This document shows, piece after piece, positions 1,967 through 53,707 of a stretch of DNA of 64,000 nt. This DNA is from Phoronis australis (taxonomy: Eukaryota > Animalia > Phoronida). The position numbers and the translations under genes are program-made. The notes under the pieces were generated by a model. The model was not told where the DNA came from and ran no database searches. It saw only the letters and a list, made by a program, of their open reading frames with translations. The stretch covers positions 335,621 through 399,620 of the forward strand of contig NMRA01000020.1 of NCBI GenBank assembly GCA_002633005.1, read 5' to 3'. Position 1 is the first letter of the stretch. Every line of letters starts with the position of its first letter.

Positions 1967-2879
1967 GTAAGTTCTTACATGGTATTTTGTGAATCCCTGT
2001 CCAGATACTTACCGTAACAACTATGAGTCTATGAATAATTTCGCGTATGCGTGTGACTCCTGGTTCTACTTGCTTTCAGAAAAAAAACATCTTCAAGGCG
2101 AAAGTTATTGATAGCAGCAGGCAAGCAATTCTGATGATTTATCAGTGCTGTAGTGGGGCGTAGGTGCACGTAGGCATATCCAACCACTTTTGGCATTTGA
2201 ACTTAGGGCCTACGCACCGTAAGAAACGTTATAGTAGGACGTAGGCGCAGTCACCCATCTTTTTACATTATGCATTAAGACTCATCGAAATCAGATGGTC
2301 CCGAGGAAACACCCCATGGGCGACTAAAAATGCTGCCAATATATCGTTTTTGGGCGTTACGCACCTAAATTTTCCTTTATAATTGTGTTTGGGCCTCCTT
2401 CAAAGACTACTTGGAATGCACGCGGACCTTTGCCTTCCTTTTTGTGTGGTTGGGCCCTCTTTCTGCGACATCCTAGATTCGCCACTGCAGACTCGAAGTA
2501 AATACCCACCCGTGAGTCAAAAATAGGCGTACATGTTTGTGAGGTGTTGCGAATGTTCACAGTTTTTCAAAACATTGTCTGATGTAGCTGTATTACACAA
2601 GTTAAAATTGACAAAGTGTTACTTTTATGCTTCCTCTTGTTCACTGGGGAAAAATGAGAAAATAAAAAATAAAATTATGTTTGTCAGCCATACTGTGTCC
2701 TTAATGGTTGAGATATTACCATAATGAAAGTGTGCTTTTATTCAGTTTCAGAGTTGAGCTTCAAACTTTATTTGTGTTGTTGGATGCATTAACACAGTGA
2801 TAGTACAATGTAGCCTTTATACCCTCAGAACAATGTTTGTACCAAGTCCACCTCTATCAGTTCAGTCAACCAGACCAAT

Positions 2880-4403
2880 AGCGGATTTGCAGCGCAGACG
2901 AACTACGCATTGCGCATGTGCGAGTTACTTCCTTCGCGAAGGCTCATGGGATAGCTTGTGGTCAGGCATGTCTTGAGCAGGCTGGATAGTGTGTGCATTT
3001 GGAGTGATTTGCAAACAAAAAACCATGTTTCATTTTTTTGCTTTATAATACCAAGCAAGTCCTCTCTCTCGTTTGTAAACACAGCGTAGCTATGATCAGT
3101 GACCGTGTGACCGAGGGCACGACTGTCGTCATGTTCAGTATTGGGGCTATCGGCGTTGATTTTGAAATCTTCTCCGGTTTCAGACAAGTTGAGAGTTCTT
3201 GGGTTGCTTAACTTTTGTATCTTTCGCCGTGGATATCCTAGAGACGTTAATTTTAAGAGGAAACTCCGTCGGACTGTTGTTCTCATACGTCTTTTTTCCA
3301 CCAGGAAAATATTCGCTGCACACACGATGGCCCCTAGGCAATTACATCACACTGGATGCCGTAGGCATTCAGGGGCGATAGTATATACATCCTCACAAAA
3401 AGTTACTCATTTCAAAAAACAGCAAATAAAATCAAATGAACCATACATATAGGAACACGGAGTTATAATAAGCACATAACACGACTCTGAATACAATTTA
3501 GTCAGCAAAACTTGAAGAAATCGATGAAAATCTGTCACGGTTTGCTCGAGTTTCTCTCAGTTACCGGGTGCCATTTTGAGGAAGTTACGTGAAATAACGC
3601 AGGTTGACGAATAAAAAGTCCAAGGGACACACATCTTACAAGTTTCACCCGATACCTTCTATGCTATTTTACAGGTGCCGTACGCTATTGTCACGCGCTA
3701 GCGTCACGCGCTTCGCTCAGTCTCGCGCTAACCTTTGCCTAACTCATGTAATTCAGTTGACATGATTTGTGGTTATCGCGCACGCGGTGATAAAATTAAC
3801 GGCAACCAAAAAAGTGGAGTTGTAATACTTCGCCAAAGTCATCTTAATTCTCACAACTAAGCTTCATCAAAGATATGTATAGAAGTAGAAAGGACCAATG
3901 ATGAAAGTAAGCGTTTTTCTTAAATGCCTTTAGTTTTAAGTGTAGAATGTATTTTTGACGAGGTGAAAACTCGAAATCGGTAACCCAAATCCGGTCACGG
4001 CCCGTTTACAATACACTGAAGTAACGAAATGAGTACAGAAAGCGAATGGAAGTATTGTAGCCCCTATATGGCCAACCGGTGGGCTACGGGTTGCCTACTA
4101 GATGGCCCCGCGTTGGTTTGAATGCGCTAAATCTCCCCTTACTCCCAACTCTCCTAATGTTGTTTGTCCATTTTTCACGAAGTTCTTGGTTTGCAGGGAA
4201 TACATAAAAACTCAGAGTTTTATCTCTCTTGTTGTTTTTGAAGCAGCCAGGAACACAACAAGTGCATCCGCCGTAAGTTTTCTTCGCGCTGGCTCATACC
4301 GCGTATTATGCTTGTTACTATGGCCGCTTTCGGAATCCTGACCACAGCACCCACAATGCACCATTTTAACCTAATTTCAATATGGCGTCGCTGCAAATCC
4401 GCT
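2880..4403 (-). mobile_element. Non-autonomous TIR DNA transposon with a decayed THAP11-like gene (apparent AT target; ISL2EU/Harbinger-group-like)
   Basis: Perfect 19-bp inverted repeat caatagcggatttgcagcg (2876-2894) / cgctgcaaatccgctattg (4389-4407). Minus strand reads CTCCVPGCFKNNKRDKTLSFYVFPANQELREKWTNNIRRVGSKGRFSAFKPTRGH, then RVCSEYFPGGKKTYENNSPTEFP, then DHSYAVFTNEREDLLGIIKQK after a frameshift. Superfamily is inferred from the AT flanks only. Confidence 0.85.
3335..4100. mobile_element. 766-bp nested insertion with 9-bp TSD and TAG...CTA ends (AcademH- or MULE-like, non-autonomous)
   Basis: gatggcccc at 3326-3334 and 4101-4109; ends taggcaa... / ...ttgcctacta; subterminal hairpin gtagccc...gggctac. 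Removing it restores the THAP frame. Confidence 0.8.
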
Positions 4404-6715
4404 ATTGACCAAAACATTCTTCAATGTATCCTTTTGATCACACAGTCAATGTATGACCAGAAGAGCCTTTGAGTGATTCTGAGTTTGGCAAATCCTAAGT
4501 ATTTACTCTGAGCTAATAATCATTTGATTCAATATTACACTTCTGTTTAAATGGCAAAGCTCACTGGTTTCAGCACAACTGTTGAATTGTGTCTAACAAT
4601 GAGGCATTATGGGATTTTGTATATAGCACAATGAAGGCAAATGGTATGCAGTAATTCCTCACTTATTTAGCCTACTCTATGGCCCATGAGCACAATTTTT
4701 TTATGTGAAATTTCTAGACAAAACTGAAGATAAAGAACATTTTAGTCCATTACCAGCATGGGTTGTAGTGTGGTTGTCATTGAACAACATTTGTTAAATT
4801 TCCCCTTATTTGCAGTAAGGTTTAATCAATCTTTGTGAATGACTATTTTGGCAATTATTTCTGTGCGGAATATGAGGAGAATCACCTGAGTTGAACTTCA
4901 ATAACGTAGAACTTCTGAATACTTATGGGTTTCCCTTTTAGTGGCCAGGCAGACGGGCAGCAATGCATGAAAGAACCCTTGAGATTTGTATAAAGATTGC
5001 AGTTTTGTTGAGGAGATTTGAAGAGTTTATGTTTACAGTGCTGTTGGAATGAACGCTGAAGGGAAATCTGTTTTTTGTTAACAGGCATTGTGTTTGTTTT
5101 AGAATGCTAAAAGGTTTTAATACTGTGCACTGTCCTTTTAACTGTCAATATGTTTTTCGTCAACTTTAAAATGTTTTCATTTTCTATTTTAGTATTCAAG
5201 TTGGCATTTGTACCCTAGGCACATTTTCTCAGGGAATCAAAATTCAAATGATTGTTCAAACCATTTATTTAAGCAAGACAATTTATACAAGAAAATTCAT
5301 TTTGCTAAAATGTCTATTTAGAAAAATGCTATAACTCCAGATATAACTCTCTACTTTAGCTTATGGGGTTGTCATTAATTATGCGAAAATAAACTCAACA
5401 AAATTTGTAAAGTTCACCTTGACAACTCTTTGGTGCATTTCTACGGTTAGGACCTAGTCTCACTAATACAATATAGCGAGTATCAAGTTCCCATCTTCAT
5501 GAGATCACTGTATGAGGCAGTGTACAGAGTTATACCCTGTTTTAAGGTATTACTATGACACAAAATGATCGTTGTCAAACAGCCATCTACTCACACAACT
5601 TGAGCGACAAGGCGTCTGTTGTTGACAAGAAAGCGCAGTGGGCAATTGAACATGTCCAGGGATACAAATGACGGGAGCTGTAATTGGTGTCGGAAAGGGG
5701 AAAATGAAGCAAAGTTTGCATATATAGATTGTATATGAAGAGTTTGTTGAAGATTTAGTAGTTATAGTGTAGAGCTAAAAGGCAAAGGAAGTCGGTTAGC
5801 AATGGGGGCAAGCTTGGGTAATGTGGCTGCTTGTGTCATGTCACAGGTTGTGTTTAGATGTATAGGTGACATGGAACGAGATGATTGAGCGTTTGTTGCG
5901 CCACCTGGTGACAGAATTGACACCACAATTGACACCCAGTCATCCCCGTGTGCCTCCTGTTGTGAAAGTTTATTTCCTCACACAACTGAAGGGGGCAGGA
6001 CAGTCAATGGCTTTGGGTCACTGTACACAGAGATCTATGAACAGAGATACCTGCCTCGAATAAATCGTAGCTGAACTGGCAGTTCACGTCAAGGCATGAA
6101 AATACAACAGCAATTGAATGAACTAGCTGCTTTTCTCACCTCGATATGAGCTGTCAGGTCTGCCATCGTTCTCTAGAGACAGACAGCTCAGCTCCTTGCT
6201 TTAAATTTACGGTGACCATTATAGTTGTAAATGTCAAGCCTCTCACCAGAAATGCACGTATTTTTAGCATTGTTGTTTAATCGGTTGTGAATAGCAACTG
6301 ACATCACTAGCCCTCTAGTCAATAAATTTTGTGACAGGTCACAATTTGCATCTTGGTCAAAATCTCAGGTCGCGTTTGTAGAATTCAGGTCGCATTTACA
6401 AATTCCAGCGTATGACATTCATAGTTGTCGATGTTTGAGAGTGAAAAAACTGAGCATCAAGGTTTAAAAAGTGATAAATTTCGATGGAGATCAGCCAGTT
6501 AGAGTAGCATATTTGGAGCTGGCATACAAGTTTTGCCGTCACATTTTTTGCTTCAATGGTAAGTGCCTTGTCTGAAAGCAACCAAAATCGTTTGCACGTC
6601 ATTTAGTGGGGTCCACCGTAGCTCACATGACCAGGAATTTGCAAGTCTTCTAGTTCATGTGAGCTGTCACAAGCCTCAACTTAAATTTCCAAATTTTAAT
6701 ATTTTGCCGCTCGTT

Positions 6716-7325
6716 TTCTTGAGCTCTGCTGTTTATTCACTGTTTTATGATACTGGAGATACTGAAACCATATTATATGTATTACATTTTACATTCTTGA
6801 GCTCTGCTGTTTATTCACTGTTTTATGATACTGGAGATACTGAAACCATATTATATGTATTACATTTTACATTCTTGACCTCTGCTGTCTATTCACTGTT
6901 TTATGATACTGGAGATACTGAAACCATATTATATGTATTACATTTTACATTCTTGAGCTCTGCTGTTTATTCACTGTTTTATGATACTGGAGATACTGAA
7001 ACCATATTATATGTATTACATTTTACATTCTTGAGCTCTGCTGTCTATTCACTGTTTTATGATACTGGAGATACTGAAACCATATTATATGTATTACATT
7101 TTACATTCTTGACCTCTGCTGTTTATTCACTGTTTTATGATACTGGAGATACTGAAACAATATTATATGTATTACATTTTACATTCTTGAGCTCTGCTGT
7201 CTATTCACTCTTTTATGATACTGGAGATACTGAAACCATATTATATGTATTACATTTTACATTCTTGAGCTCTGCTGTCTATTCACTGTTTTATGATACT
7301 GGAGATACTGAAACCATATTATACA
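6716..7325. repeat. 78-bp minisatellite x8 abutting the exon-2 acceptor
   Basis: Unit ttcttgagctctgctgtttattcactgttttatgatactggagatactgaaaccatattatatgtattacattttaca; the 26-codon unit creates the spurious ORF 6563..7351. Confidence 0.95.
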
Positions 7326-7347
7326 TAGTATACATTTTACATTTCAG

Positions 7348-7611
7348 ATAACTACTTCACTGTGAAGGGGGGCTACATCTGGATAAACTGCACTCTAGAT
7401 AGCAGCTCCTACATCCGTTATGAGAGTGCAAGAGACTCCACTTACTACGTTTTATTTTTCATTGATGGGGGATCATCAGTCCCATTGCCATCTGGCTGGG
7501 CCGTGTTCAATACAAAACGTGTGCGCATACAGGCGTCCAAGTGGGAAAGTGCAGGAGAGTACTCTTGTACCAGCGGCCGTAAAACGCAACGTTTTTATTA
7601 CTCAATCATCA
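7348..7611 (+). CDS. Receptor exon 2, Ig domain 1 (V-like)
   Basis: tttcag| ... a|gtgagt, phase 1-1; DNYFTVKGGYIWINC...ESAGEYSC...FYYSII. Confidence 0.85.
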
Positions 7612-11297: not shown

Positions 11298-11473
11298 TTT
11301 TTATGAAGTGTGCAATTGCAAAGGAGGTTAATGACTGGTGTGCACAATTTTAGTTTTTATGAAGTGTGCAATATTGCAAAGGAGGTTAATGACTGGTGTG
11401 CACAATTTTAGTTTTTATGAAGTGTGCAATTGCAAAGGAGGTTAATGACTGGTGTGCACAATTTTAGTTTTTA
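11298..11473. repeat. ~57-bp tandem repeat x3
   Basis: tttatgaagtgtgcaattgcaaaggaggttaatgactggtgtgcacaattttagtt repeated three times. Confidence 0.9.
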
Positions 11474-18906: not shown

Positions 18907-19481
18907 AGTCTGTCATCCCTTGTCAATAATATTCGTGAAGATTTGACATGGCAGTAGATGAAGCAATTTGGACCCGGAGATAAGAATAGACCTGCCATCA
19001 CACTGGGCCCAAAACATCATGCTAAACATTCCCATAGATTAATTATGAAAGCGATGATGTGTCATCAGAGCCACCCTTGCTTTGTCAAACTTTTGTCATG
19101 AAAGTTTTGTCACAAGCATACTTAAGCTGTGCTGCTTAATACTGTGGCATTGTTACTTGTTGAAACTTTCTCTTCCTGAACCTTAAACACAAACTGGACC
19201 TACTGTGTGATCACAGCTGATTGGCTGGAGTATTATGTATGTCATATGTACTCTGACTAATCACTCTATCTGTGGAGGCAGTATCTGCTAGTAGTATTTA
19301 CTCACTCCGACCATGGGAATTGGAAGTCAGTCCTGCTGTGTTTTTGGTCTGGCTTCAGGGTTTTTTGGTGTGGCCAATTAATTTTAATTAGGTTTCTGGT
19401 GAGAAGAAAGCATTTTTGTGAGCTTGGCCCCTGAAGTGATTCCTTTGCTATATCTTATCTGATGCTCCTTTGTTGTTTCAG

Positions 19482-19754
19482 ACTTGACAGTTAACGTAAT
19501 GGTCAGCGAACCTGCCATTTCTGAGGGGAGTTCAGTCACCTTCACGTGCGAAGCGATGGGTCTTCCAGGGACGGTGAACTTTGGTATGTGGAAGCACACA
19601 TCGGTGGATGGCATCACTCGATTCGTTGCAAACTCTGCTGGGCGGAGTCAGCTCGTTATTGACAACGTTCAGTACCACCAGGCGGGAAAATACTGTTGTT
19701 CGTCCAGCAACGGTGACTTCAATAAGACCAGCTGCACCGATCTGGAAGTGAGGT
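19482..19754 (+). CDS. Receptor exon 5, Ig domain 4
   Basis: tttcag| ... t|gtatgt; EGSSVTFTCEA...WKH...QAGKYCCSSSNG...LEVR. Confidence 0.95.
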
Positions 19755-20137
19755 GTATGTATTATTTCATAACGTGGCTCACACTGAGAAGTGATATAAG
19801 CAGTTCACAGTTATCAACCCTCTCACGTGTACCTAGCGTACACTTTTCTCTCACCCTCTCATTGAAAGTGTGTGCGTATGTTTATGTTTATTTAAGCCTC
19901 ATTTCTCTGGATAGTCTCTGGACATCCCACTGTTGCAATGACCTCAAAGGATTTCAAAACGCTGTTACATTCGTCTCTATTCACATAGTGTGAATGAATC
20001 ATAGTTGTCCAACAAAAACTATTGCCGTTGTGAAGCCTATTTGATTTTCATCCTCCCAGAGTTCTTCCGATTACTGCCATGGGATACGGACACGTGCAAT
20101 GTGAATTTCATATATGTTTGACTAAACATTTTTACAG

Positions 20138-22560: not shown

Positions 22561-22821
22561 TACGTCCTGCCAAGCCTCAAAATGTCACTGTGGTGCGACA
22601 TGGCAACATCGCTGTAGTCAGTTGGCATCGTATCCGTGACAACATCACTCGTCTAGCTGTCGAATACTGCTCGTCGTCTATGTGTCACAAAAAGTACGTC
22701 TCCGTCGACCAAACGTCAGTGGATGTCGAAGCAGATGAGAACAGACACTTCACGTTCAAACTGCTTTTGTATGATGGCGATGACCTCGTGCAGACCTCGG
22801 AGACTTTGAATCGACAGAGCG
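22561..22821 (+). CDS. Receptor exon 8, divergent FN3 domain 2
   Basis: ttccag| ... g|gtacgt; RPAKPQNVTV...VVSW...VEYC...FTFKLLLY. Confidence 0.85.
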
Positions 22822-22884
22822 GTACGTCTTTAAGAGATTCGTCTTTTGTTTAGGCTCTCTTTCATGCTTCATGGACTCCATTAA

Positions 22885-24360
22885 AGGCGAAGGCAACCTT
22901 TTTCATGTCATTTTTAGGTTCGTTGGTTATCCCAGACATATTTTTCACTTAATTATAATTTTTTTAATTAATTACTCATCCTCTACTCCGAAAGTGATGT
23001 TTTGGTAGGCAAGAATTTCACGCCAATTTGGCACTGCGTTGAGTTTAGTTCGAGGATCTGTAATACTTTTGTTTTCGGGCTGTTTTTCTAAAATCGACGA
23101 GTATTCTATGACAAACTAGGTTGTTAGAGAACCCAATTAAGTTCAAGTTGGATTTAGGGATTCTTTAGTTTGTATTAATCTGAAAATGACTGGAGTCGCC
23201 GACCCATATCACAGTGACAGTAGTGAGGTAAGTAACGGAGACATTGTTCATATAGAAGTGGTGACAAGGAATTTTTTCTCGGACAGTCAGTGGGTGGGTA
23301 TACTTTGTATGTTTGAGCCCGAGCATATTGAGGCAGAGTACACACAGGCACAACTGTACCACTTGCTCCAGTGTCCCGTGACACACTCCCACTGGATGGT
23401 GACCTGAGCACCCAAACTACTTACATCCCACAGTGTGACTCCCTTGCCACACACCTGGCACTTTCTAAATAGCTCCAATGCTTTAGACAAGTCCACAATA
23501 AACTTATCAAAGTTTGACTCACCGATCTGTTCATTGGACGACGAACTGTCCTCTTCACTGAGTGTCGAACTGGGCCTGTATTCACTCCCACAACTCAACA
23601 TCGCTGCAGGGCTGCTTACAGGCTCTGGGCTAGAGACAACATGACAGGGCGAATCACTGCTAGTTCCCAGAATTGCACGCTCTGTACGTTCGGAGGCACG
23701 GGTGACAGTAGGTGAAGTGCCTCTAGTCACTGTAGTGGCCACAGCTCGCAAGGCTTCTTGCTTCAAAAACGCACTTCTCGGGGGTGGCGACAGAGCACTG
23801 CCAGGAATCAACAGCTACGGTATGGCACCCTTCTTCTTGTGTTGTTTCGCAGGGACCTTCATCAATTCAGCGTACACATCTCTCTCGTAATCTGACGGCA
23901 GAAAATGCTTGCCACACACTCGGTAACCCTCCACTGCTTTGAACGTTGCGTTGACGGGTAACGCAGCGTTCTTTACACAAACGAGCCAAGTACGGCGAAG
24001 TGTGTCATCCTTCGGAAAGCGATGCAAAGTCTAGTATTCCCAAAGCGCGCGTGACGATAATGAGTACATTCCGGTACGCAGCAATAGTGTGGCATGTTGA
24101 CTCACTCATAAAGAAAAGCAAACGACGACCGAACTTATCACAACCGAGGTAGAACTATGACTGACTCGACAGCTCTCACAGTCAGACTATATGAAAAGAA
24201 ATTGGCGCAAAATTTTTGCCTCCCAAAACGTCACTTCCGGAGTGGAGGACGAGTAATTGATTAAATTACAAAAAGCTGTAATTAAGTGAAAAATATGTCT
24301 GGGATAACCAACGAGCCTTATCTTTGCTAAAAATGACATGAAAAAAGGTTGCCTTCACCT
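22885..24360 (-). mobile_element. Internally deleted Kolobok DNA transposon with THAP-transposase pseudogene
   Basis: TTAA at 22881-22884 and 24361-24364; termini aggcgaaggcaacc / ggttgccttcacct; imperfect TIRs of about 150 bp. Minus strand from 24095: MPHYCCVPEC, frameshift, LHRFPKDDTLRRTW...RVCGKHF...GAIP*, then CQVCG...WECVTGHWSKWYS. TTAA plus AG ends plus THAP and a Cys/His finger are Kolobok hallmarks. Confidence 0.85.
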
Positions 24361-36277: not shown

Positions 36278-37912
36278 TTAGTTGTAGTGAATTACATGTG
36301 AAAAGAAGTCTTCTGTGTCTTTAGTTACTTTACCACACAGATTGCATTGAAGTGGATTGTTCAGATTATGAAGACCCATGTGGATACAGTAGAGGGTTTT
36401 CTTCACAAAGATAATGTTGCAATATTTGCACATGAGCAAACGTGATCTGTTTCTCTCCGCGAAGCTTAAAATGCTCTCTTCACCAGGTGGATGGTTTGAC
36501 ACTTCCTCATTAGTTGGAGGATTTTCATGTACACAACTGATTTTGGGTTGAATATTTCCAAATTCACTGTTAACTAGTTTTCTCTCAGCTGCAGTGCTCA
36601 GATCTAGAGGAGAAGTGCTTGTTTTGACAGCGTCAGGAAACCTGCGTTTTAATGACTTCACCTCTTCACCTCTCTTATCTTGTGGCGAGATAGACACAGC
36701 CTTTGTGGACAGATCTAGTTGTGCAGATTTCTCGTAAGCGTTCGACAACATTGAGCACTCCGGCTCCGACGCACTCCTTTGTGTCTTTGGATCATGATAC
36801 TCAGCACATTCTTTAAGATTGCTAAATGACAAAGACCTTTGCAGCTTTCTCTCAGGTAGCGGATTACGTAAACTGCAGTTGTAGGCATCGTCTTTTGTGA
36901 GACAACTTGTATTCCTCTGATTGGTTTCGGGTTCCAAGTCTGTACTTCCGGTGTTAGATTCATTACGAATGCTACCTCTAGGACGCCCCCTCTTTGGTCG
37001 ATTCAAAGAGTATTCCCTCCAGAACTGATTTCGTTTCAACACCTCCAAGAAAGTTTCCGTGCTTTCCTCATTTTTACTCGTCGTGGCTGATTCTTTATGT
37101 TCGTCTTTAACGTGTAACATCATATGCATGCCCAAATCGTCTGGTGTGTGAAACTGCTTGCTGCATGTCTTACAAGTATATGTTTCTCGGAACGTGCTGT
37201 ATATTTTACCGCTGTTGATGGCATGATTTGGCAACATGCTCGTAGAATGACTTACATGACCAGATGCTATCCCCGTTCGGATCAAATCAATTAAACTGGC
37301 TTTGCCATTGAGGCCAGACACGCTGTTTCGTTCATGCGCCAAAATGTGGATCGCGATTAATTCTCTGCTGGAAGTTTGAAACTTGCAAATTGGGCACGTG
37401 ATGTTTGATGATGGTCTCCTTCCGGAATGCAGCTGCGCAGTCAGCACCGTCTCTCCACTGTCTCTGTGCGCATGTCCTAACATGTGCATAGCCATGTGAT
37501 CCTGGTCTTCGCATACAAAATCGCACACAACACACATTAACATGTTGTTGAGTTTTCCCGCCTTCTGAGTGACCATATTTATGGTGTTTAACTCTTCGTC
37601 GTCCTGTGTGACGTCTTTGAGGCTGACGTCTCTGTTCTGCACGTGCCATAACGTATGACTGGCCAATATTTCCTTGCTGCTACACTCGTAATCGCAAGTT
37701 GGGCAGCGGAATCTTTCAGATGACGTTGACATATTCAGTGGAAATGCCGGCGAGATGTTCGTCTTTGGCGGTAAAACGTCCTCCATCACAACTAGCGTGA
37801 AAGAACCTAGGGGTTGTAAAATACTATGAGTGAAATGTCGTCTGGAAAATGACTCAGTGTCCCCCATGACCGGGTGTCCTCGTGTATATATTTGAGCGGA
37901 GTATCCGTGCAT
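36278..37912 (-). CDS. Intronless C2H2 zinc-finger transcription factor, Ikaros/Hunchback family-like
   Basis: 544-aa ORF with four dispersed C2H2 fingers, AT-hook RPKRGRPRG, QLDLS and PLDLS motifs, and the C-terminal pair CKYCNIIFVKKTLYCIHMGLH / CNLCGKVTKDTEDFFSHVIH. True start Met is uncertain. Confidence 0.88.
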   Translation of the reverse strand: MHGYSAQIYTRGHPVMGDTESFSRRHFTHSILQPLGSFTLVVMEDVLPPKTNISPAFPLNMSTSSERFRCPTCDYECSSKEILASHTLWHVQNRDVSLKDVTQDDEELNTINMVTQKAGKLNNMLMCVVCDFVCEDQDHMAMHMLGHAHRDSGETVLTAQLHSGRRPSSNITCPICKFQTSSRELIAIHILAHERNSVSGLNGKASLIDLIRTGIASGHVSHSTSMLPNHAINSGKIYSTFRETYTCKTCSKQFHTPDDLGMHMMLHVKDEHKESATTSKNEESTETFLEVLKRNQFWREYSLNRPKRGRPRGSIRNESNTGSTDLEPETNQRNTSCLTKDDAYNCSLRNPLPERKLQRSLSFSNLKECAEYHDPKTQRSASEPECSMLSNAYEKSAQLDLSTKAVSISPQDKRGEEVKSLKRRFPDAVKTSTSPLDLSTAAERKLVNSEFGNIQPKISCVHENPPTNEEVSNHPPGEESILSFAERNRSRLLMCKYCNIIFVKKTLYCIHMGLHNLNNPLQCNLCGKVTKDTEDFFSHVIHYN

Positions 37913-40900
37913 TGCAGTGAATTACTGGACCGTATGCTGACATCAAAGATGTATTTGCATGGACCTAATTATGCTTATGAACAAATTATGCTTATGAACA
38001 GCAGGAACCAAACGATAATGCTATTTGAACATCATCTGCGCTAAACAAAGTGCAGTTATATTCATTGATAACTTATAAATATAAAAACAAAAAATGCAAA
38101 TAGGTGACATTTGTACTAATGACGTAAATTGTTAGCTACCGATTTATACTTCAACACAAGATCTGAATCAGTGCTTTCTACTGTCTAAACAAAGTAACAT
38201 ATCACTTATAACTCAAAAGGATCATACTAAACCCTGTTTTGATGATTTCCACCAACTCTCGTTCTATCACCTGCTAATGTATCATTGGCGTCAATCTTCC
38301 AAGTCTGATGCAGGAATCAACTAAAATCTCATAACCTCTACGTCACAGTTTGTACATTATAGTCTTTGGTGGGTGGTGTTTTAGCCCCACAGTTGCCATG
38401 TAATTCGCTAGCAGCGCAGGTCACGCTTGCCCGTTTGGCAGACTTGGAAATGAGTTCAATTTTCTCCCCAACGTCTGGCGGTTTTGAAGAGTTCAGAGTA
38501 TTTTGTTGCAGAGAACTGAATGGCAAAGTCGGTTTTAGCATACGTTAATAGGCCAAAACCAGGTTTGGTATCCTTTTAAATGAATCGACTTTTTGGTCAA
38601 TTTTGTCAAGACTGAAAACACAAGATTGACATTCATTTCATGTTTGGGGACGGTTATCATTTCCTATAAAGATTTTAAAAGGTTTGAGAGAAATTTTGTG
38701 GTTGAGTTGCGTAATCAATGAGACGGGGATTAAATCATAAATGTTTAACTAACATTGCAATACCGTATATTGAAACAGTAATGGAGTTGCACATAAAAAT
38801 GCTGCCGTCATTTAGTTAAATCGTGTGCTAGTAATAGACCCGCCTTCTCGAAGTAGGTAGTTGTAAAAAAATCTTCGCGACAAATGTCGCGTAATGCAAC
38901 AGTTTTGTTGTCAGGGGTAATTTTTGTAATCGTTGAAAACAAATTTGGTTCCTGGTGCATCGAGTCACTTGATAGTCGTGAAAAGAGATTTTCTGAAATC
39001 AGCTTCTGCTCAGATTGGATCATGAAACATTTGCTTTACTGACGAGCTAAATGATACTCGGGAATGGCAGGATAATTCAAGGGACCATTATCGGGTTTTC
39101 GGCCAAAAAACGCATTTCAGTTATTATTGTTGGATGGAGTAGGCTTCACGTTACGAGCTTTCACCGCGAGCTACAAGACAGCAAAATCCTTTTTCTTGCC
39201 GAAAATGTCCTACGCGTATTTAACTGGCAGTCACCGACTTTGAAATCAGCAAATGTATGACAGACAATAGCGAGAATTGTTGATTTGTAAGAAAGTCGAA
39301 AAACACAACAAATTGTATTATTAGTCTTATACTGTGGTCAGAGCTAATAACTTCAAGAAATTTATCCCATCCATAAATGAACACAAAGCGTTTTTCGGCC
39401 GCAAAGCAAAAATGCCCCGTGACATGAAATGCACCACCGAAGAAGTACAGTTGCTTTACTCAAAATGTTCCGCTAAACGCTCGCAAGTGCCTGGCAACCC
39501 ACTGAAGTGACGGTCTTTCAAGGCGGCACGAAACACTTGCATTATGATACCATCTCAATCCTTCGATCTGAAGCAAAATTGTACTCTATCGAGTTTATAT
39601 TTATGAACAAGGTATTGAACATTCAAATGCTCATTCTGCTAATTGATGTTCACAGCGAGATTCGACTTCACATACTTGCACGCCACCGGAGTCCGAGGTC
39701 TAATCGTTATACTCGAAACGCGACTACATGCGAAAATAAACGCTTATGATCAATTTATAAATATTGTTCTGAAATCATGCGGCGTGAAAAGGTCTCCAGT
39801 TTGCGCCCGAATCCAGTCTGAGTTCGGAAATAGGCCCCTATCACAGATGTTTTTAATGGACCACACTTCCCTTTGCTCTTATCTGTTAAGAACCAGTCTC
39901 GTAAATTTAAACCAGGCATGTATCCCATTCTTTGCAAACAAATTTTCGAAAAATGGAATTGTCCGGTACTAGCCAGCTGTCGCTGCCATTTTGTAAGCGT
40001 ACAACAATAACATCACACTTAAATAAACTTCAAAATTCTGCAGTCAAGCTTCTAGTAAAAAATGAGCACCATTTAGAAATAGGTTCTGAATAGACTGGCT
40101 GACGTCACACTTCGTTTTGTAAAGACGATTAGTTTGTAATTAACATCAATCGGAAAGAAATCAAAATTATGGAATTGCTAAAATAACTTTAAACACCTGG
40201 CACGCCGTTCACTGGCTTATTTTGCCGCAATCATCATGTTTTCTGGTTATTCGAACGCGAGCTTCGATTTGAGAGGTACTCTTGCCTCATTTATTTATTC
40301 ATCTAATACGAAGATTATGAAAGCATCAATTTTTGATTAGATCAATTATTCATTGTGTATTGAGTTCCGGTTTTGGAAAGAAGATTTAAAGCAAAACCCT
40401 TGAGCATACAGAGTGTCATGAAACTATGTTTTCTTACTGGCAGCAAAATACGTGCGTTTGCATGTATGCACGGGTACGTGCACGCGCGCGTCCTTGTGAA
40501 TTTGGTTGATATTATCATTACTATGATGCTATTTTCAGATTAAATAAAGTGTTTGAGAAACAGTAACCTGTAAAGCTGTTCGTAGCGGACAGAATTTTGA
40601 TTTTAAAAGCGCTATGTTGGCGGTATCTCAAAACAGATTAGCAAGAAGCCATTGTTTACAGTTTCTCTTGTTCACAACCGGTGATGCAATGTGTTTATCA
40701 AGTGCCTTTTGCAAGTCTATGAGAAAAGGATTTTCCGTATAAGCGTGTATCACATCGACTCGTGATAGTTAAAATTTCTGATACTGTAATAGCAATTGCA
40801 AGAGTTAAGTTTATGAGAAATGGCTAACTTTAAATCTGAGAATTCGAAAATGGCACACGTACTCATTGCACATGACTTGAGTTACCGGCATGTTCGACAA

Positions 40901-42859: not shown

Positions 42860-43168
42860 TATTGGTTGAGACCGAGGCTGTATGAGTATCATTATTGGTT
42901 GAGACTGAGGCTGTATGATTTAGTTTATCATTATTGGTTGAGACCGAGGTTGTATCAGTTAGCTTATCATTATTGGTTGAGAGCAAGGCTGTACGAGTTA
43001 GTTTATCATTATTGTTTGAGACCGAAGCTGTATGAGTTAGTTTATCATTACTGGTTCAGACCGAGGCTGTATGAGTTAGCTTATCTTTATTGGTTGAGAC
43101 CGAGGCTGTATGACTGAGTTAGTTTATCACTATTGGTTGAGACCGAGGCTATATGAGTTAGTTTATCA
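42860..43168. repeat. 39-bp minisatellite x~8
   Basis: Unit tattggttgagaccgaggctgtatgagttagtttatcat. Confidence 0.92.
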
Positions 43169-43493
43169 CGGCGCGGTGTCTCATTTTGTGCACCGAGCAC
43201 ATTCGCAAGGAATTACGAGCATCGTTTTTTTACAAACCCAGAAATCGCGTCTTACATGGGTACGGAACAATTAGTAGAGACCAATTTCATGACAGTAAAC
43301 GTTCCAAATCAAATGTTTCGTTTGTAGAGCGTGCGTTTAAAACTGCGTTAGGTTCTACAATTAAAAATAACAGTTACACTTCATTCTCGTAAAAATGCCT
43401 CAATGATGTCACAGCGCCAGCACGTATTCGTTAAATCAACACTGATGTTAAAATATTTTACTCTGTTCATGGGTTACATCCGAGACGAGCACT

Positions 43494-43760
43494 GGGCCTG
43501 GCACAATCGCGACTGGGAACACGGGCCTGGCACAATCACGACTGGGAACACTGGCCTGGCACAATCACGACTGGGAATACTTGGCCTGGCACAGTCACGA
43601 CTGGGAACACTTGGCCTGGCACAATCACGACTGGGAATACTTGGCCTGGCACAGTTACGACTGGGAACACTTGGCCTGGCACAGTCACGATAGGGAATAC
43701 TTGGCCTGGCACAGTCACGACTGGGAACACTTGGCGTGGCAGAATCACGACTGGGAACAA
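43494..43760. repeat. 30-bp minisatellite x~9
   Basis: Unit ggcctggcacaatcacgactgggaatactt; source of several repetitive ORFs. Confidence 0.92.
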
Positions 43761-46700: not shown

Positions 46701-48074
46701 ATCAGGTTGCGTCAGCAGGACAGCCAAACCATGGCGTTTCTGCGGGAACAAAGGGCGACTTGAAAAATCTTTGTTTCCAAAGAGACGACCAAGACGCTTT
46801 ACCAGAAGGTCTGTTTGCAGTACACTTCAGATAGTGAAGCAAATACGACAAAGGCGTTCTCTCATTCAGAATTGTAAGTACTGGTAATTAGCCAGAGGAT
46901 TTGAAAACTAGGAATAATCACGAATATGTGTTATCTTTTATCGTTTAATTAGCAGCTAGGAAGTGAATCTGCAACTAGGGTGTCAAAGTAACATCTCTGT
47001 ATTCATACACAGCCTACAGTCACAATACTTAACATTCACAGCATGGAGTAAACAATGAAATTAATACGTTGCAATGCTATGTTTAACTTACAGAATCGAG
47101 TTGAGTTTACCCAAACTGTACAGATGTCGCGACATCTAGCGTTTAGACAGAGAACTTGTCTGTTTTCCCTATATTTTGGTGGCAGCGGTGTTAAGAAACT
47201 TTTTTCTGAGTAAAATAATCTTTAGATAAGTTTAATTAGCTTCGACAAAACGTCATTCTCACGTGATTGAATTCTTTCACACGACTAAAGAGGCGTTGTT
47301 TACAAAGACTCTTCCAGAATCTACGTTTCGCCCAGTTCTGCTGACTAAAACGAAAGTCTACTTAGGCCTTTTACTCTAGTCAAATTGATGTCATAATATT
47401 TCCTACCATGATAGAGCTCTATTTCCGTTACCAACAACATCTTAGAAATCATCAGCAACTTAATTTTGCTTTGAAAAAATGATTGACGAAAGATAATTAT
47501 TTGGTAACAAGGTCTTGCGTTAGAATTAGTTTCATGAGGCTTAAAATAAAAATGAAGCAGATATGGTATCACTAACAGGCAACTATACCGGCCCTGACGC
47601 CAGCTCATTAAGTTTTATCTTACTGTCAATAATCTATCTTTTATTTTGGCATAAATACAATAAAAACAAAACGAAGGCAATTAATACGCACTAAAATCGA
47701 TTTAACTGAGGCGATGTTAAAGACATTCTCTCTGTGTTTCGCGTTGTTGTTTATTTGGTGCAACTACTACAGTCGATTGTTTGAAACTTTCACCGGCACA
47801 GCTCTAACAACGGATGCGTACGTCCACGTTACAAGAATTCAAGTTCCTTTTCGCCAACTTCATATCCGTATACATGGGTATGAAGATGTACGTCACGTGC
47901 GCTTCAGCGGCCTGTAAGGTTGCCAACGTAACAACATGCAGTTACCGCGACTCAGTGTTTGAAGTTAATAACCGATCTTAACATCGTTTAAAACGAAGTG
48001 GTCATCTAGAATTAAGTCAGAGTAGCAATACTGGAGTTGGTCAAAACTTCTCACTTGGGTTGAACATTAGAAAA

Positions 48075-49055
48075 ATGTTAAACAGCTCCATTGGTGACGA
48101 AAATAGTACCCACGGCGTATTAATCGAGTTCGTAGAAATACCAACTTCTGTTCTTATCTTCAACATGTGTTTGGAGATTCTTATGTTCTTTCCAATGTTG
48201 TTCGGAAACGTGTTGGTACTAGTTGCGTATTGCGCATTCTACACAGTACGGGAGGAAAACAGCAACGTATTCCTTTTCAGTCTGGCGATCACGGACTTGG
48301 CCACAGCCGTTTCATTGCCGTTTAATATAATTAAAAAATACATCGCGCCTCTCACGGGATTTCAAGCGCCGTTTGGAAAGCATCCTCCTCTGTGTTACTT
48401 TGTTATGTTCTTGCAAACCTGGCCGTCCGGTGCTTCGATATTATCGCTCCTTATGGTGGCCGTTGACAGAGCAGTCGCCATCATGCAGCCGTTACGATAC
48501 TACAACATCATGACAAAGAGAGTGTGCTTGTGGGCGACTGTATTTGCCCACGCGTTTCCCATTGCTTTGTACATATTTGGTACTATCCACGCGGCTCTCA
48601 CCCATTCTTACGGCTCAGAAAAGTGTTTGATCGAGGTAGTGTACGATCAAACTGTCTCCACTGTTTTCTTGTCCGTCTCCTTGATTGTGCCAGTCGTGGT
48701 CACATACAGTCTACATCTCTACGTCGTAATCATAGCTGTAAAACAGCGGCGACAAGTTCGCAACGGGGATATGCAAGCCAGCGAACATCGAAGACATCAG
48801 CATAAAATTCTCCGGACCATGTCTCGCATTCTTGGATTATACGGCATCTGTTTTGTGCCAGTCGCTATCATGAAATCTGGGATACAGGCGAAACCTACCT
48901 CTCCGTGGTGGCATCAAGCCTTGAATTACCTTTTTCTGGACATATTGTATCTGAACAGCGCTTTAAACCCTTTGGTTTACTCTCGATCTGTGCAAAGTTT
49001 TAACACCTCTTTTAAGAAACTCCTGGCTCGCGGTAGAGTGGGTAATTTAACCTAG
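48075..49055 (+). CDS. Intronless orphan rhodopsin-like (class A) GPCR
   Basis: Seven hydrophobic segments; N-terminal sequons NSS and NST; TM1 GN, TM2 LAITD, TM3 VDRAVAIMQPLRY, TM6 CFVP, TM7 NSALNPLVY. First ATG at 48075. Confidence 0.92.
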   Translation: MLNSSIGDENSTHGVLIEFVEIPTSVLIFNMCLEILMFFPMLFGNVLVLVAYCAFYTVREENSNVFLFSLAITDLATAVSLPFNIIKKYIAPLTGFQAPFGKHPPLCYFVMFLQTWPSGASILSLLMVAVDRAVAIMQPLRYYNIMTKRVCLWATVFAHAFPIALYIFGTIHAALTHSYGSEKCLIEVVYDQTVSTVFLSVSLIVPVVVTYSLHLYVVIIAVKQRRQVRNGDMQASEHRRHQHKILRTMSRILGLYGICFVPVAIMKSGIQAKPTSPWWHQALNYLFLDILYLNSALNPLVYSRSVQSFNTSFKKLLARGRVGNLT

Positions 49056-52937: not shown

Positions 52938-53546
52938 ACATCCATGTGACTTTACTGTACTGGGTGGCAATGTCAATGACGCCCATAACAATAGAATAAA
53001 CTAGATTCCTGCCAAAAATTATTTGAATACACTGCAACAAGTCCAGTGTTGGAGGCTTTAAAAAACAATGAGCTTTTCATATTTACAGTAATATTTAATG
53101 AGTAAGGAACATTTGAAATGTTAACAAAGCTCTGAGAGGCTCTTAACAATTTGCACATGGCAATTCTAGCACCAATTTAGTTCCAGATGAAACAAAATAC
53201 AATTAAAAGAAGAAAACTAAATGCACTTTTACCAGCAAAACAAGTGCATCTGATGACTGCAAAATCTATTGAAACAGTGTTCAGTGTTCAGTATTCACCT
53301 GATAAAGTGTATACAGCCCACAATAGAAATCTTAACAGTAACAGAATTCAATTGGAAATAGCAATACATTCCACAATAAAATGTCACCCAGAATTCACCA
53401 ACCTGGTGGACTAGTGAAATTTTATTTTTCATTTTTCAAAAGCTCATTACACGAAAATGGGGACTTAAAGATCGAAATCTGAAATATGGCTGAACTTATC
53501 TCTCTGCAATTAGCCATCACAGTTACTGATAGAACATGAACAAAAT

Positions 53547-53707
53547 TGCCCTCACTTGGCTCAGACTAATAACTCAGTCATTGCCCTCACTTGGCTCAGA
53601 CTAATAACTCAGTCATTGCCCTCACTTGGCTCAGACTAATAACTCAGTCATTGCCCTCACTTGGCTCAGACTAATAACTCAGTCATTGCCCTCACTTGGC
53701 TCAGACT
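53547..53707. repeat. 35-bp tandem repeat x~4.6 ending at an N
   Basis: Unit ttgccctcacttggctcagactaataactcagtca; N at 53708, so copy number is unresolved. Confidence 0.9.

Follow-up and report, generated by a model that had tools for sequence, protein, structure and literature searches.

A repeated element in Phoronis australis DNA probably shares its origin with the vertebrate regulator THAP11/Ronin. The element occupies positions 2880-4403 (1.5 kb) of the window, the whole 64-kb stretch of DNA that was analyzed. We believe, with a probability of roughly 0.8, that it is a multi-copy, non-coding remnant of a likely ISL2EU cut-and-paste transposon, retaining both ends and a broken first third of the transposase gene, and that THAP11 was likely domesticated from the N-terminal half of a transposase of the same clade. 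ISL2EU transposons move by cut-and-paste with a DDE transposase, and their non-autonomous copies are moved by transposase supplied in trans. Judged by sequence comparison, what is new here appears to be a THAP11-type transposase clade with an HCF-1-type motif, together with a motif in the transposon ends; the element itself appears to add a non-autonomous member to an already known group.

Ends and layout of the element

The element is bounded by perfect inverted repeats, as a sequence-only reading of this DNA had claimed. A 19-bp repeat lies at 2876-2894 and 4389-4407. Because the 4 outermost bp belong to the target site, the TIR itself measures 15 bp, at 2880-2894 (plus strand; 3' end relative to the THAP gene, where read depth jumps) and at 4389-4403 (minus strand; 5' end relative to the THAP gene). 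The left edge reads CAAT and the right edge ATTG, the expected outcome of a 15-bp TIR inserted in an A|AT|T site. We place the presumed 2-bp target duplication, AT, at 2878-2879 and 4404-4405, the left copy from the sequence and the ISL2EU target rule (PMC4482050, in excerpt). A subterminal 10-bp word at 2957-2966 recurs inverted at 4337-4346.

Most of the transposase gene appears to have been lost by internal deletion. The plus-strand segment at 2895-3027 is probably left over from the opposite end of the parent element: two longer contigs follow it over 2898-3027 and part from it afterwards, and protein homology stops at the same point. This puts the likely breakpoint at 3027-3030 (minus strand), with HTH, DDE, and the second gene gone. 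A domain scan of the element found the THAP part alone and no HTH, DDE, or YqaJ domain; absence of the YqaJ gene is expected for a deletion derivative. No further copies of the element were found in the 64-kb window.

Several of these features resemble those of the ISL2EU group of PHIS (PIF/Harbinger-like) transposons. ISL2EU elements duplicate AT in an A|AT|T target and have TIRs of 6-259 bp, mostly starting with GG (PMC4482050, in excerpt). They encode a transposase with THAP, HTH, and DDE domains and a second, opposite ORF with YqaJ (PMC4482050, PMC4122938, and PMC9179366, in excerpt). The element likewise has the A|AT|T target, short TIRs, and an N-terminal THAP; its closest full-length relatives are also THAP-HTH-DDE_Tnp_4 proteins, and loci of the sister clade also have an opposite SWIM-YqaJ ORF. 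It differs in having no HTH, DDE, or YqaJ and in TIRs that start with AG instead of the usual GG. The AG start is common to the YqaJ-clade relatives, whose ends are mostly AAT|AG. Pangu, a PHIS group with a 3-bp ANT duplication and a Myb/SANT second ORF, was not matched: the flanks are AAT versus ATT, and the relatives carry YqaJ. Based on these results, the element is likely a non-autonomous ISL2EU derivative.

The broken THAP gene

The minus strand of the element encodes a THAP domain that is split by a nested insertion. We rebuilt the frame by deleting 3335-4109 and translating the minus strand, and the joined frame gave one continuous THAP domain, bearing out the earlier suggestion of a nested insertion. 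The 5' part of the domain (4110-4297, assigned with Pfam, PDB, and reads) contains a start codon at 4297-4295, a private 4-bp insertion near 4288, and the long loop typical of THAP11; the 3' part (3252-3334) has a zinc-ligand His read as Tyr, through base 3311. The gene starts approximately 105 bp from the TIR, a spacing similar to that in loci encoding homologous transposases.

The THAP domain is of the THAP11 type. Its 5' half alone matched Pfam THAP with an E value of 3.2e-9 and human THAP11 (PDB 2lau) with 71.8 bits (E 3e-19) and no gaps, in contrast to approximately 18 bits for THAP1 and THAP2. The gap-free match to THAP11 described in the sequence-only reading was found in this comparison too. 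The joined domain was 59% identical over 81 aa to turtle THAP11, again gap-free, and 60-62% identical to tick transposases. The window peptide is no nearer to THAP11 than to full-length transposases of ticks and a brachiopod, so it is a cousin and not the donor of THAP11.

A frameshift downstream of the THAP domain (3225-3250) moves the rest of the homology to another frame, in which 3030-3097 encodes an HCF-1-binding-type motif, DHSY (3097-3086), and approximately 20 coiled-coil residues, after which the coil ends. The motif has the form D/E-H-x-Y ahead of a coil. Alone, this tail scored 7 bits (E 0.48) against a profile of DHxY-coil segments, ranking second among the ORFs of the window. When the alignment was anchored on DHSY, EDLL..IKQKN of the window stood opposite ELLRKLNEQRD of THAP11, and the likeness between NERED and NEQRD that had been proposed for the coil was out of register. 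The motif and coil had also been taken as marks of THAP11. DHSY is indeed present, but the same module is found in most human THAP proteins, and the motif does not guarantee HCF-1 binding (PMC13631171, in excerpt).

In sum, the window shares with THAP11/Ronin the THAP sequence, the 23-residue loop, and DHSY with an in-register coiled coil behind it. It differs from THAP11, a conserved host gene that ends past the coiled coil and has a longer, low-complexity linker, in being broken, repeated, and bounded by TIRs. Nor does it look like a THAP11 orthologue, which would be single-copy, intact, and grouped with THAP11: it is multi-copy and broken, and the best trees do not make it the sister of THAP11 (see below). 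The element in the window is an ordinary dead copy, and it is the sole long-loop, THAP11-type member with ends visible in this analysis.

The nested insertion

The sequence that splits the THAP domain is a non-coding DNA transposon of 766 bp (3335-4100) between two copies of a 9-mer (3326-3334 and 4101-4109). Its imperfect TIRs of approximately 80 bp start with TAG and scored 52, versus a best score of 42 among 500 shuffles. There are many stops in all six frames and no coding sequence, and by read depth the insert forms a repeat family of its own. Target duplications of Mutator elements fit the 9 bp. So do those of AcademH elements, which are 9-10 bp (PMC10045372, in excerpt). We considered and rejected an intron as the explanation of the insert or of the frameshift: the insert is flanked by a target duplication and is repeated as a family in its own right, and the spacing to relatives agrees with a 1-base shift.

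The insert is most likely present family-wide and not an accident of a single copy. No joint removing it (3334 to approximately 4101) was among the 15 joints listed per read comparison (77 and 70 weaker ones were found besides), read depth was steady across the insert junctions, and a single contig spanned 3125-3429. Amplification therefore most likely began from a composite that already contained the insert.

Copy number and shared and private lesions

The element belongs to a family that we read as having tens to hundreds of copies. In run X1, depth rose from 50-60 in the unique bins of the flanks to 17,000-43,000 at positions within the two parts of the THAP domain, and in run X3 it was 529 in the element and approximately 8 in the flanks; these figures are summed contig depths in public runs, not copy numbers. 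The excess had sharp edges at the TIRs and was several hundred-fold in X1 and tens-fold in X3. High depth bounded by TIRs, with no catalytic gene, is what is found for a non-autonomous DNA transposon.

Raw reads separated lesions private to the window copy from those of the family. The 4 extra bases near 4288 were missing from 88 of 97 reads of run X9 and from 96 of 115 reads of run X8, so in the majority the ATG at 4297 is in frame. Base 3311 gave a His codon in all 95 X9 reads and Tyr in the window copy. The out-of-frame start and the His-to-Tyr change are thus private to the window copy. The sequence-only reading had counted a lost start codon among the lesions; the ATG is still there, put out of frame by the 4 extra bases. 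Its change of the zinc ligand to Tyr is real at this locus but confined to this one copy. The frameshift and the missing catalytic domain that it described were both seen, and the frameshift appears to be common to the family: it persists in the majority letters, with no majority indel among the rows listed. The X8 and X9 reads were approximately equal on both strands and spanned the insert; their library strand is unspecified, and they are silent on a THAP transcript.

Small shares of runs X6 and X7, which carry two other organism labels, contained pieces up to 98% identical to window positions 2875-4362, one of which crosses an insert junction. A related species, mislabelling, and transfer are all possible sources.

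We propose that a master copy arose by internal deletion of HTH, DDE, and the YqaJ gene and would have acquired the frameshift and the 766-bp insertion. It would then have been multiplied many times by transposase acting in trans, with the window copy decaying further after amplification.

Full-length transposase relatives

The THAP domain, DHxY motif, and coiled coil together are supported as being the N-terminal half of THAP-HTH_Tnp_4-DDE_Tnp_4 transposases. A HMMER search of 1.84 billion representatives gave 312 matches, 150 of them listed; the best single-domain matches among those listed were THAP11 and transposase-type proteins, and those with names were THAP11 of vertebrates and proteins from Lingula, ticks, and a hemichordate. 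(A word-indexed search with the 56-aa THAP half gave no match; HMMER did match.) HTH_Tnp_4 and/or DDE_Tnp_4 were found in 16 of the 81 proteins scanned from the 150 listed, and P-element family domains in none of the 81. Proteins of the brachiopod Lingula (P0017/P0151) and of ticks (P0165, P0166, P0174, and P0287) have, in order, a THAP domain, linker, DHxY, coiled coil, HTH, and DDE. A predicted model of P0151 (mean pLDDT 70.5) has a 74-residue helix (129-202) that starts 7 residues past DHSY. A structure search with this model returned THAP11 on top and generic DDE folds next, and adds little. The idea that the element represents the source lineage of THAP11 gains from these relatives, although the element itself is a cousin.

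The THAP11-type proteins form a distinct part of the transposase tree. We built an HTH-DDE tree from 46 transposases and 299 columns with a quick search; 48 were intended, and P0247 and P0077 were left out for want of an anchor motif. The long-loop proteins fell within one clade of 19 (SH-aLRT 96). A DHxY-like motif was present in 16 of these 19 (one DHDAY counted) and in 0 of 20 in the sister clade; it is also present in the distant transposases P0250, P0267, and P0115. THAP and DDE identities covaried (rho 0.48; 0 of 999 permutations). The DHxY, the THAP11-type loop, and the subterminal SBS2/M4 motif described below go unmentioned in the published descriptions of ISL2EU, as excerpted.

The transposons themselves could be viewed in 27 related metagenome loci that were recovered with an alignment query. 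An opposite-strand YqaJ was present in 7 of the 9 loci scanned for opposite ORFs, 3 of them with a SWIM finger too. The loop was readable in 22 of the 27, and all 22 belong to the short-loop sister clade, so the YqaJ linkage is known for that clade only. Searches for loci with P0017 alone in metagenome contigs, and with alignment A2 in viral contigs, found none. Four loci (L003, L006, L015, and L017) have long inverted repeats that run into the 5' portions of the two convergent ORFs, and upstream of THAP in L024 (approximately 480-580) and L026 there is a small palindromic insert apparently exactly at the element terminus.

The same kind of THAP domain also occurs in other protein contexts. 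In several species of carpet sharks (P0084 and cluster P0276-P0285), an ISL2EU-type THAP is N-terminal on a 'downstream neighbor of Son-like' protein, possibly a second, independent capture from the ISL2EU group. Three DDE-less invertebrate proteins, P0019 (Glandiceps, a hemichordate), P0033 (Ornithodoros, a soft tick), and P0027 (Ixodes), have the same THAP type. Two of them, P0019 and P0033, are annotated as THAP11-like and have DHxY and a coil; one of the three is fused to C2H2 fingers. Either fragmentation of transposons or parallel domestication could account for them.

THAP11 and the transposase THAP domains

The transposases matched THAP11 more closely than THAP1 or THAP2. In a word-limited search of proteins longer than 488 aa with bowfin THAP11, the five matches were a multi-THAP protein and four tick proteins with HTH_Tnp_4, three of which also have DDE_Tnp_4; the tick matches were 59-66% identical. 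A profile of 21 transposase-type proteins, made without THAP11, gave THAP11 (2lau) 130 bits, versus 49 for THAP2 and 39 for THAP1. Tick P0287 was 64% identical to lizard THAP11 over the 83 residues of the THAP domain, with no gaps, and 34% identical over 71 residues from DHSY through the coiled coil (E 2e-6). With a DHxY-coil profile of 19 transposase-type segments, three THAP11s reached 17-22 bits, compared with 3-5 for the highest-scoring short-loop transposase. The THAP11 coiled-coil structure 5ajs was unmatched by the full-length transposase profile. The THAP11-specific signal is the THAP sequence with its long loop, not the HCF-1 motif and coil that most human THAP proteins share.

These searches bear on the published view that THAP11 descends from a P element (PMC10329844), in which the likeness to ISL2EU would be convergence. 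The P-element relative THAP9 shares the N-terminal THAP fold and also has an HCF-1 motif (PMC13631171, in excerpt), as this view might lead one to expect. However, the P-element THAP (3kde), which was present in the PDB set searched, was unmatched at an E value of 10 by either the transposase or the THAP11 profile, the catalytic family is another one, and convergence would have to account for gap-free identity of 59-66% between THAP11 and ISL2EU-type transposases. We give this origin very little credence. The target duplication of P elements is 8 bp. The proposal that the element is ISL2EU/Harbinger-like and not P-element-like holds up on its A|AT|T site, its ISL2EU-type relatives, and the unmatched P-element THAP.

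THAP11 and the transposase clade have a well-supported common origin, as far as sequences can tell. THAP trees were made from 106 rows (quick search) and from a 50-row subset of those, with no P-element or other human THAPs included. The best trees from both sets put THAP11 inside the transposase THAPs. In the 50-row tree, THAP11 (99/96) was sister to tick transposases (85/73), and the long-loop proteins were not one clade. The phylogeny had been proposed as a check on the link to THAP11; the window did fall near THAP11 among transposase THAPs, but with no settled position there. The best trees place it elsewhere than as sister to THAP11, and an AU test did not reject the sister placement (p 0.265). 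In another tree, P0019 was the nearest row to the window (89/81), and neither P0019 nor P0033 grouped with THAP11.

The direction from transposon to THAP11 rests on parsimony and is not statistically proven. ISL2EU elements of several phyla regularly carry THAP, and every true THAP11 name found was from a vertebrate. The reverse would be that THAP11 is an old host gene whose THAP, HCF-1 motif, and coil were captured by an ISL2EU lineage. Trees that place THAP11 outside the THAPs of transposons survived AU tests (p 0.278 and p 0.378), compatible with such a capture; with only about 80-110 columns, these tests cannot fix the direction. The DDE-less, THAP11-like P0019 and P0033 might also be read as host genes of this kind, P0019 being the nearest row to the window, but they do not group with THAP11. 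A capture fits poorly with THAP being standard in ISL2EU (PMC4482050, PMC4122938, and PMC9179366, in excerpt) and covarying with DDE, with the short-loop and more distant ISL2EU THAPs that grade into the THAP11 type, with the DHxY of the distant transposases, and with the limited orthology of invertebrate THAPs described in a review, as excerpted. We consider the reverse direction unlikely.

That an unrelated non-autonomous element took up part of a THAP11-like host gene, or a retrocopy of one, is more doubtful still. Such an origin would explain an element with no catalytic domain whose nearest tree row is DDE-less. Yet the ends of the element, with their AAT|AG start and subterminal motif, match those of loci that encode homologous transposases, as does the distance of the gene start from the TIR; poly-A is absent, and the gene is cut in the middle of the coiled coil, where the longer contigs diverge.

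A THAP11/ZNF143 motif in the transposon ends

The ends of the element and of many related loci contain a match to the site at which THAP11 and ZNF143 act. We scanned for the published TBS, ACTACANNTCCCA, joined to the SBS1 core (PMC3627581, in excerpt), over 16 positions with at most 3 mismatches; the motif was picked after inspection of the loci and then tested. The sole site in the 64-kb window, an SBS2-M4 match with 2 mismatches in 16, is at 4341-4360 (plus strand), 43 bp inside the TIR, and six Markov controls gave 0, 0, 0, 1, 0, and 0 sites. The 27 loci (68,282 bp) gave 14 sites, versus 0-1 in 10 controls. Thirteen loci have the motif upstream of THAP in the same orientation, and one further site is at the far end of L003. 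The 13 are non-independent and form approximately 8 groups, with 48-77% THAP DNA identity between groups (counted for in-register groups only, with the window and L027 rows excluded). Among the 14 loci without the motif, L007 and L008 carry weaker versions and the others nothing better than 6 mismatches; most of those others have less than 300 bp of upstream sequence on their contigs.

The two halves of the motif were not equally conserved. The ACTACA half had at most 1 mismatch in the window and in every one of the 13 motif loci, and also in L007 and L008, whose ZNF143 half had 3-4 mismatches. This ACTACA half lies 25-32 bp from the putative end of the element in most of the loci with an end that could be placed. 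The same ends also carry other promoter-like words (CRE-, YY1-, and NRF1-like). The ACTACA half has been credited to THAP11 (PMC5006282, in excerpt), and the isolated THAP11 domain prefers the 3' half of the site (PMC3627581, in excerpt).

There are two readings of this motif, both compatible with an ISL2EU origin of THAP11. In one, it is a mere host promoter, a ZNF143 site that drives the transposon genes and is not bound by the transposase THAP. Its fixed orientation upstream of the ATG and the other promoter-like words fit such a role, and mammalian THAP11 sites always overlap a ZNF143 site (PMC3627581, in excerpt). Against it stand the retention of the ACTACA half in 13 loci and the window, and in L007 and L008 despite the decayed ZNF143 half, and its place 25-32 bp from the putative end in most loci with an end that could be placed. 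In the other, more speculative reading, the transposase THAP would bind the ACTACA-type half, and THAP11 would have kept this specificity. We weight the promoter somewhat above inherited binding and think it slightly the better bet. Tentatively, and with the odds against it, the whole THAP11 kit (THAP, HCF-1 docking motif, dimerising coil, and DNA specificity) could have come from an ISL2EU transposase. The hyperconserved M4/SBS2 would then be its end-binding site, 25-45 bp inside living and dead ends, HCF-1 would be brought by these transposases to the ends of their own elements, and loss of the catalytic half would have sufficed for domestication.

Other features of the window

The window contains several other features. 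A second, unrelated and frameshifted THAP element at 22600-24100 (minus strand), followed by a CxxC...CxxGH-type motif, is presumably Kolobok- or Mutator-like. A 546-aa ORF at 36278-37918 (minus strand) has dispersed C2H2 fingers, and its C-terminal finger pair resembles, we assume, that of Ikaros/hunchback proteins. There is a rhodopsin-family GPCR as a single ORF at 47982-49052 (plus strand) and an immunoglobulin-domain exon at 19463-19990 (plus strand). Minisatellite arrays with 30-78-bp units are at 818-1126, 6716-7343, 11298-11473, 42860-43168, 43490-43759, and 53545-53707; the repetitive ORF at 6563-7351 is due to the array with 78-bp units.

Discussion

Published accounts place the source of THAP11 elsewhere or leave it unnamed. 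Apart from the P-element descent discussed above, THAP11 has been described as coming from an unnamed transposon (PMC5695914), and THAP genes in general have been tied to P elements or to an unnamed source (PMC3424704, PMC5753468, PMC10027918, and PMC13631171, in excerpt). DDE_Tnp_4- and Harbinger-associated THAPs are described in Hydra and oyster, with THAP11 unmentioned in that excerpt (PMC10027918), and ISL2EU is not cited as a source of human genes in the excerpted PMC5753468. We found no literature, mostly titles and abstracts, that links THAP11 to ISL2EU or Harbinger or places the motif in transposon ends; subscription journals, Repbase, Dfam, and supplements such as the THAP tree of PMC10027918 were outside this scope.

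Based on the comparisons described above, we suggest that in a vertebrate ancestor an insertion of this clade was truncated past the coiled coil, and that the truncated product would have been retained as a DNA-binding, HCF-1-recruiting dimer that became THAP11. HARBI1 and other domesticated Harbinger genes are host genes from the same PHIS superfamily. The nuclease part is what HARBI1 retains; in THAP11, only the part for DNA binding and interaction would have been retained.

In vertebrates, THAP11 is essential and regulates housekeeping genes, and its likely source would be reassigned from the P element to ISL2EU. The source clade is still widespread, with intact-looking transposases at 59-66% THAP identity, so three questions could be tested with existing proteins: whether HCF-1 recruitment was an original function of the transposase, whether the THAP11 motif is a site inherited from transposon ends, and where M4 came from. 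If this origin is true, ISL2EU joins the transposon groups that supplied vertebrate genes.
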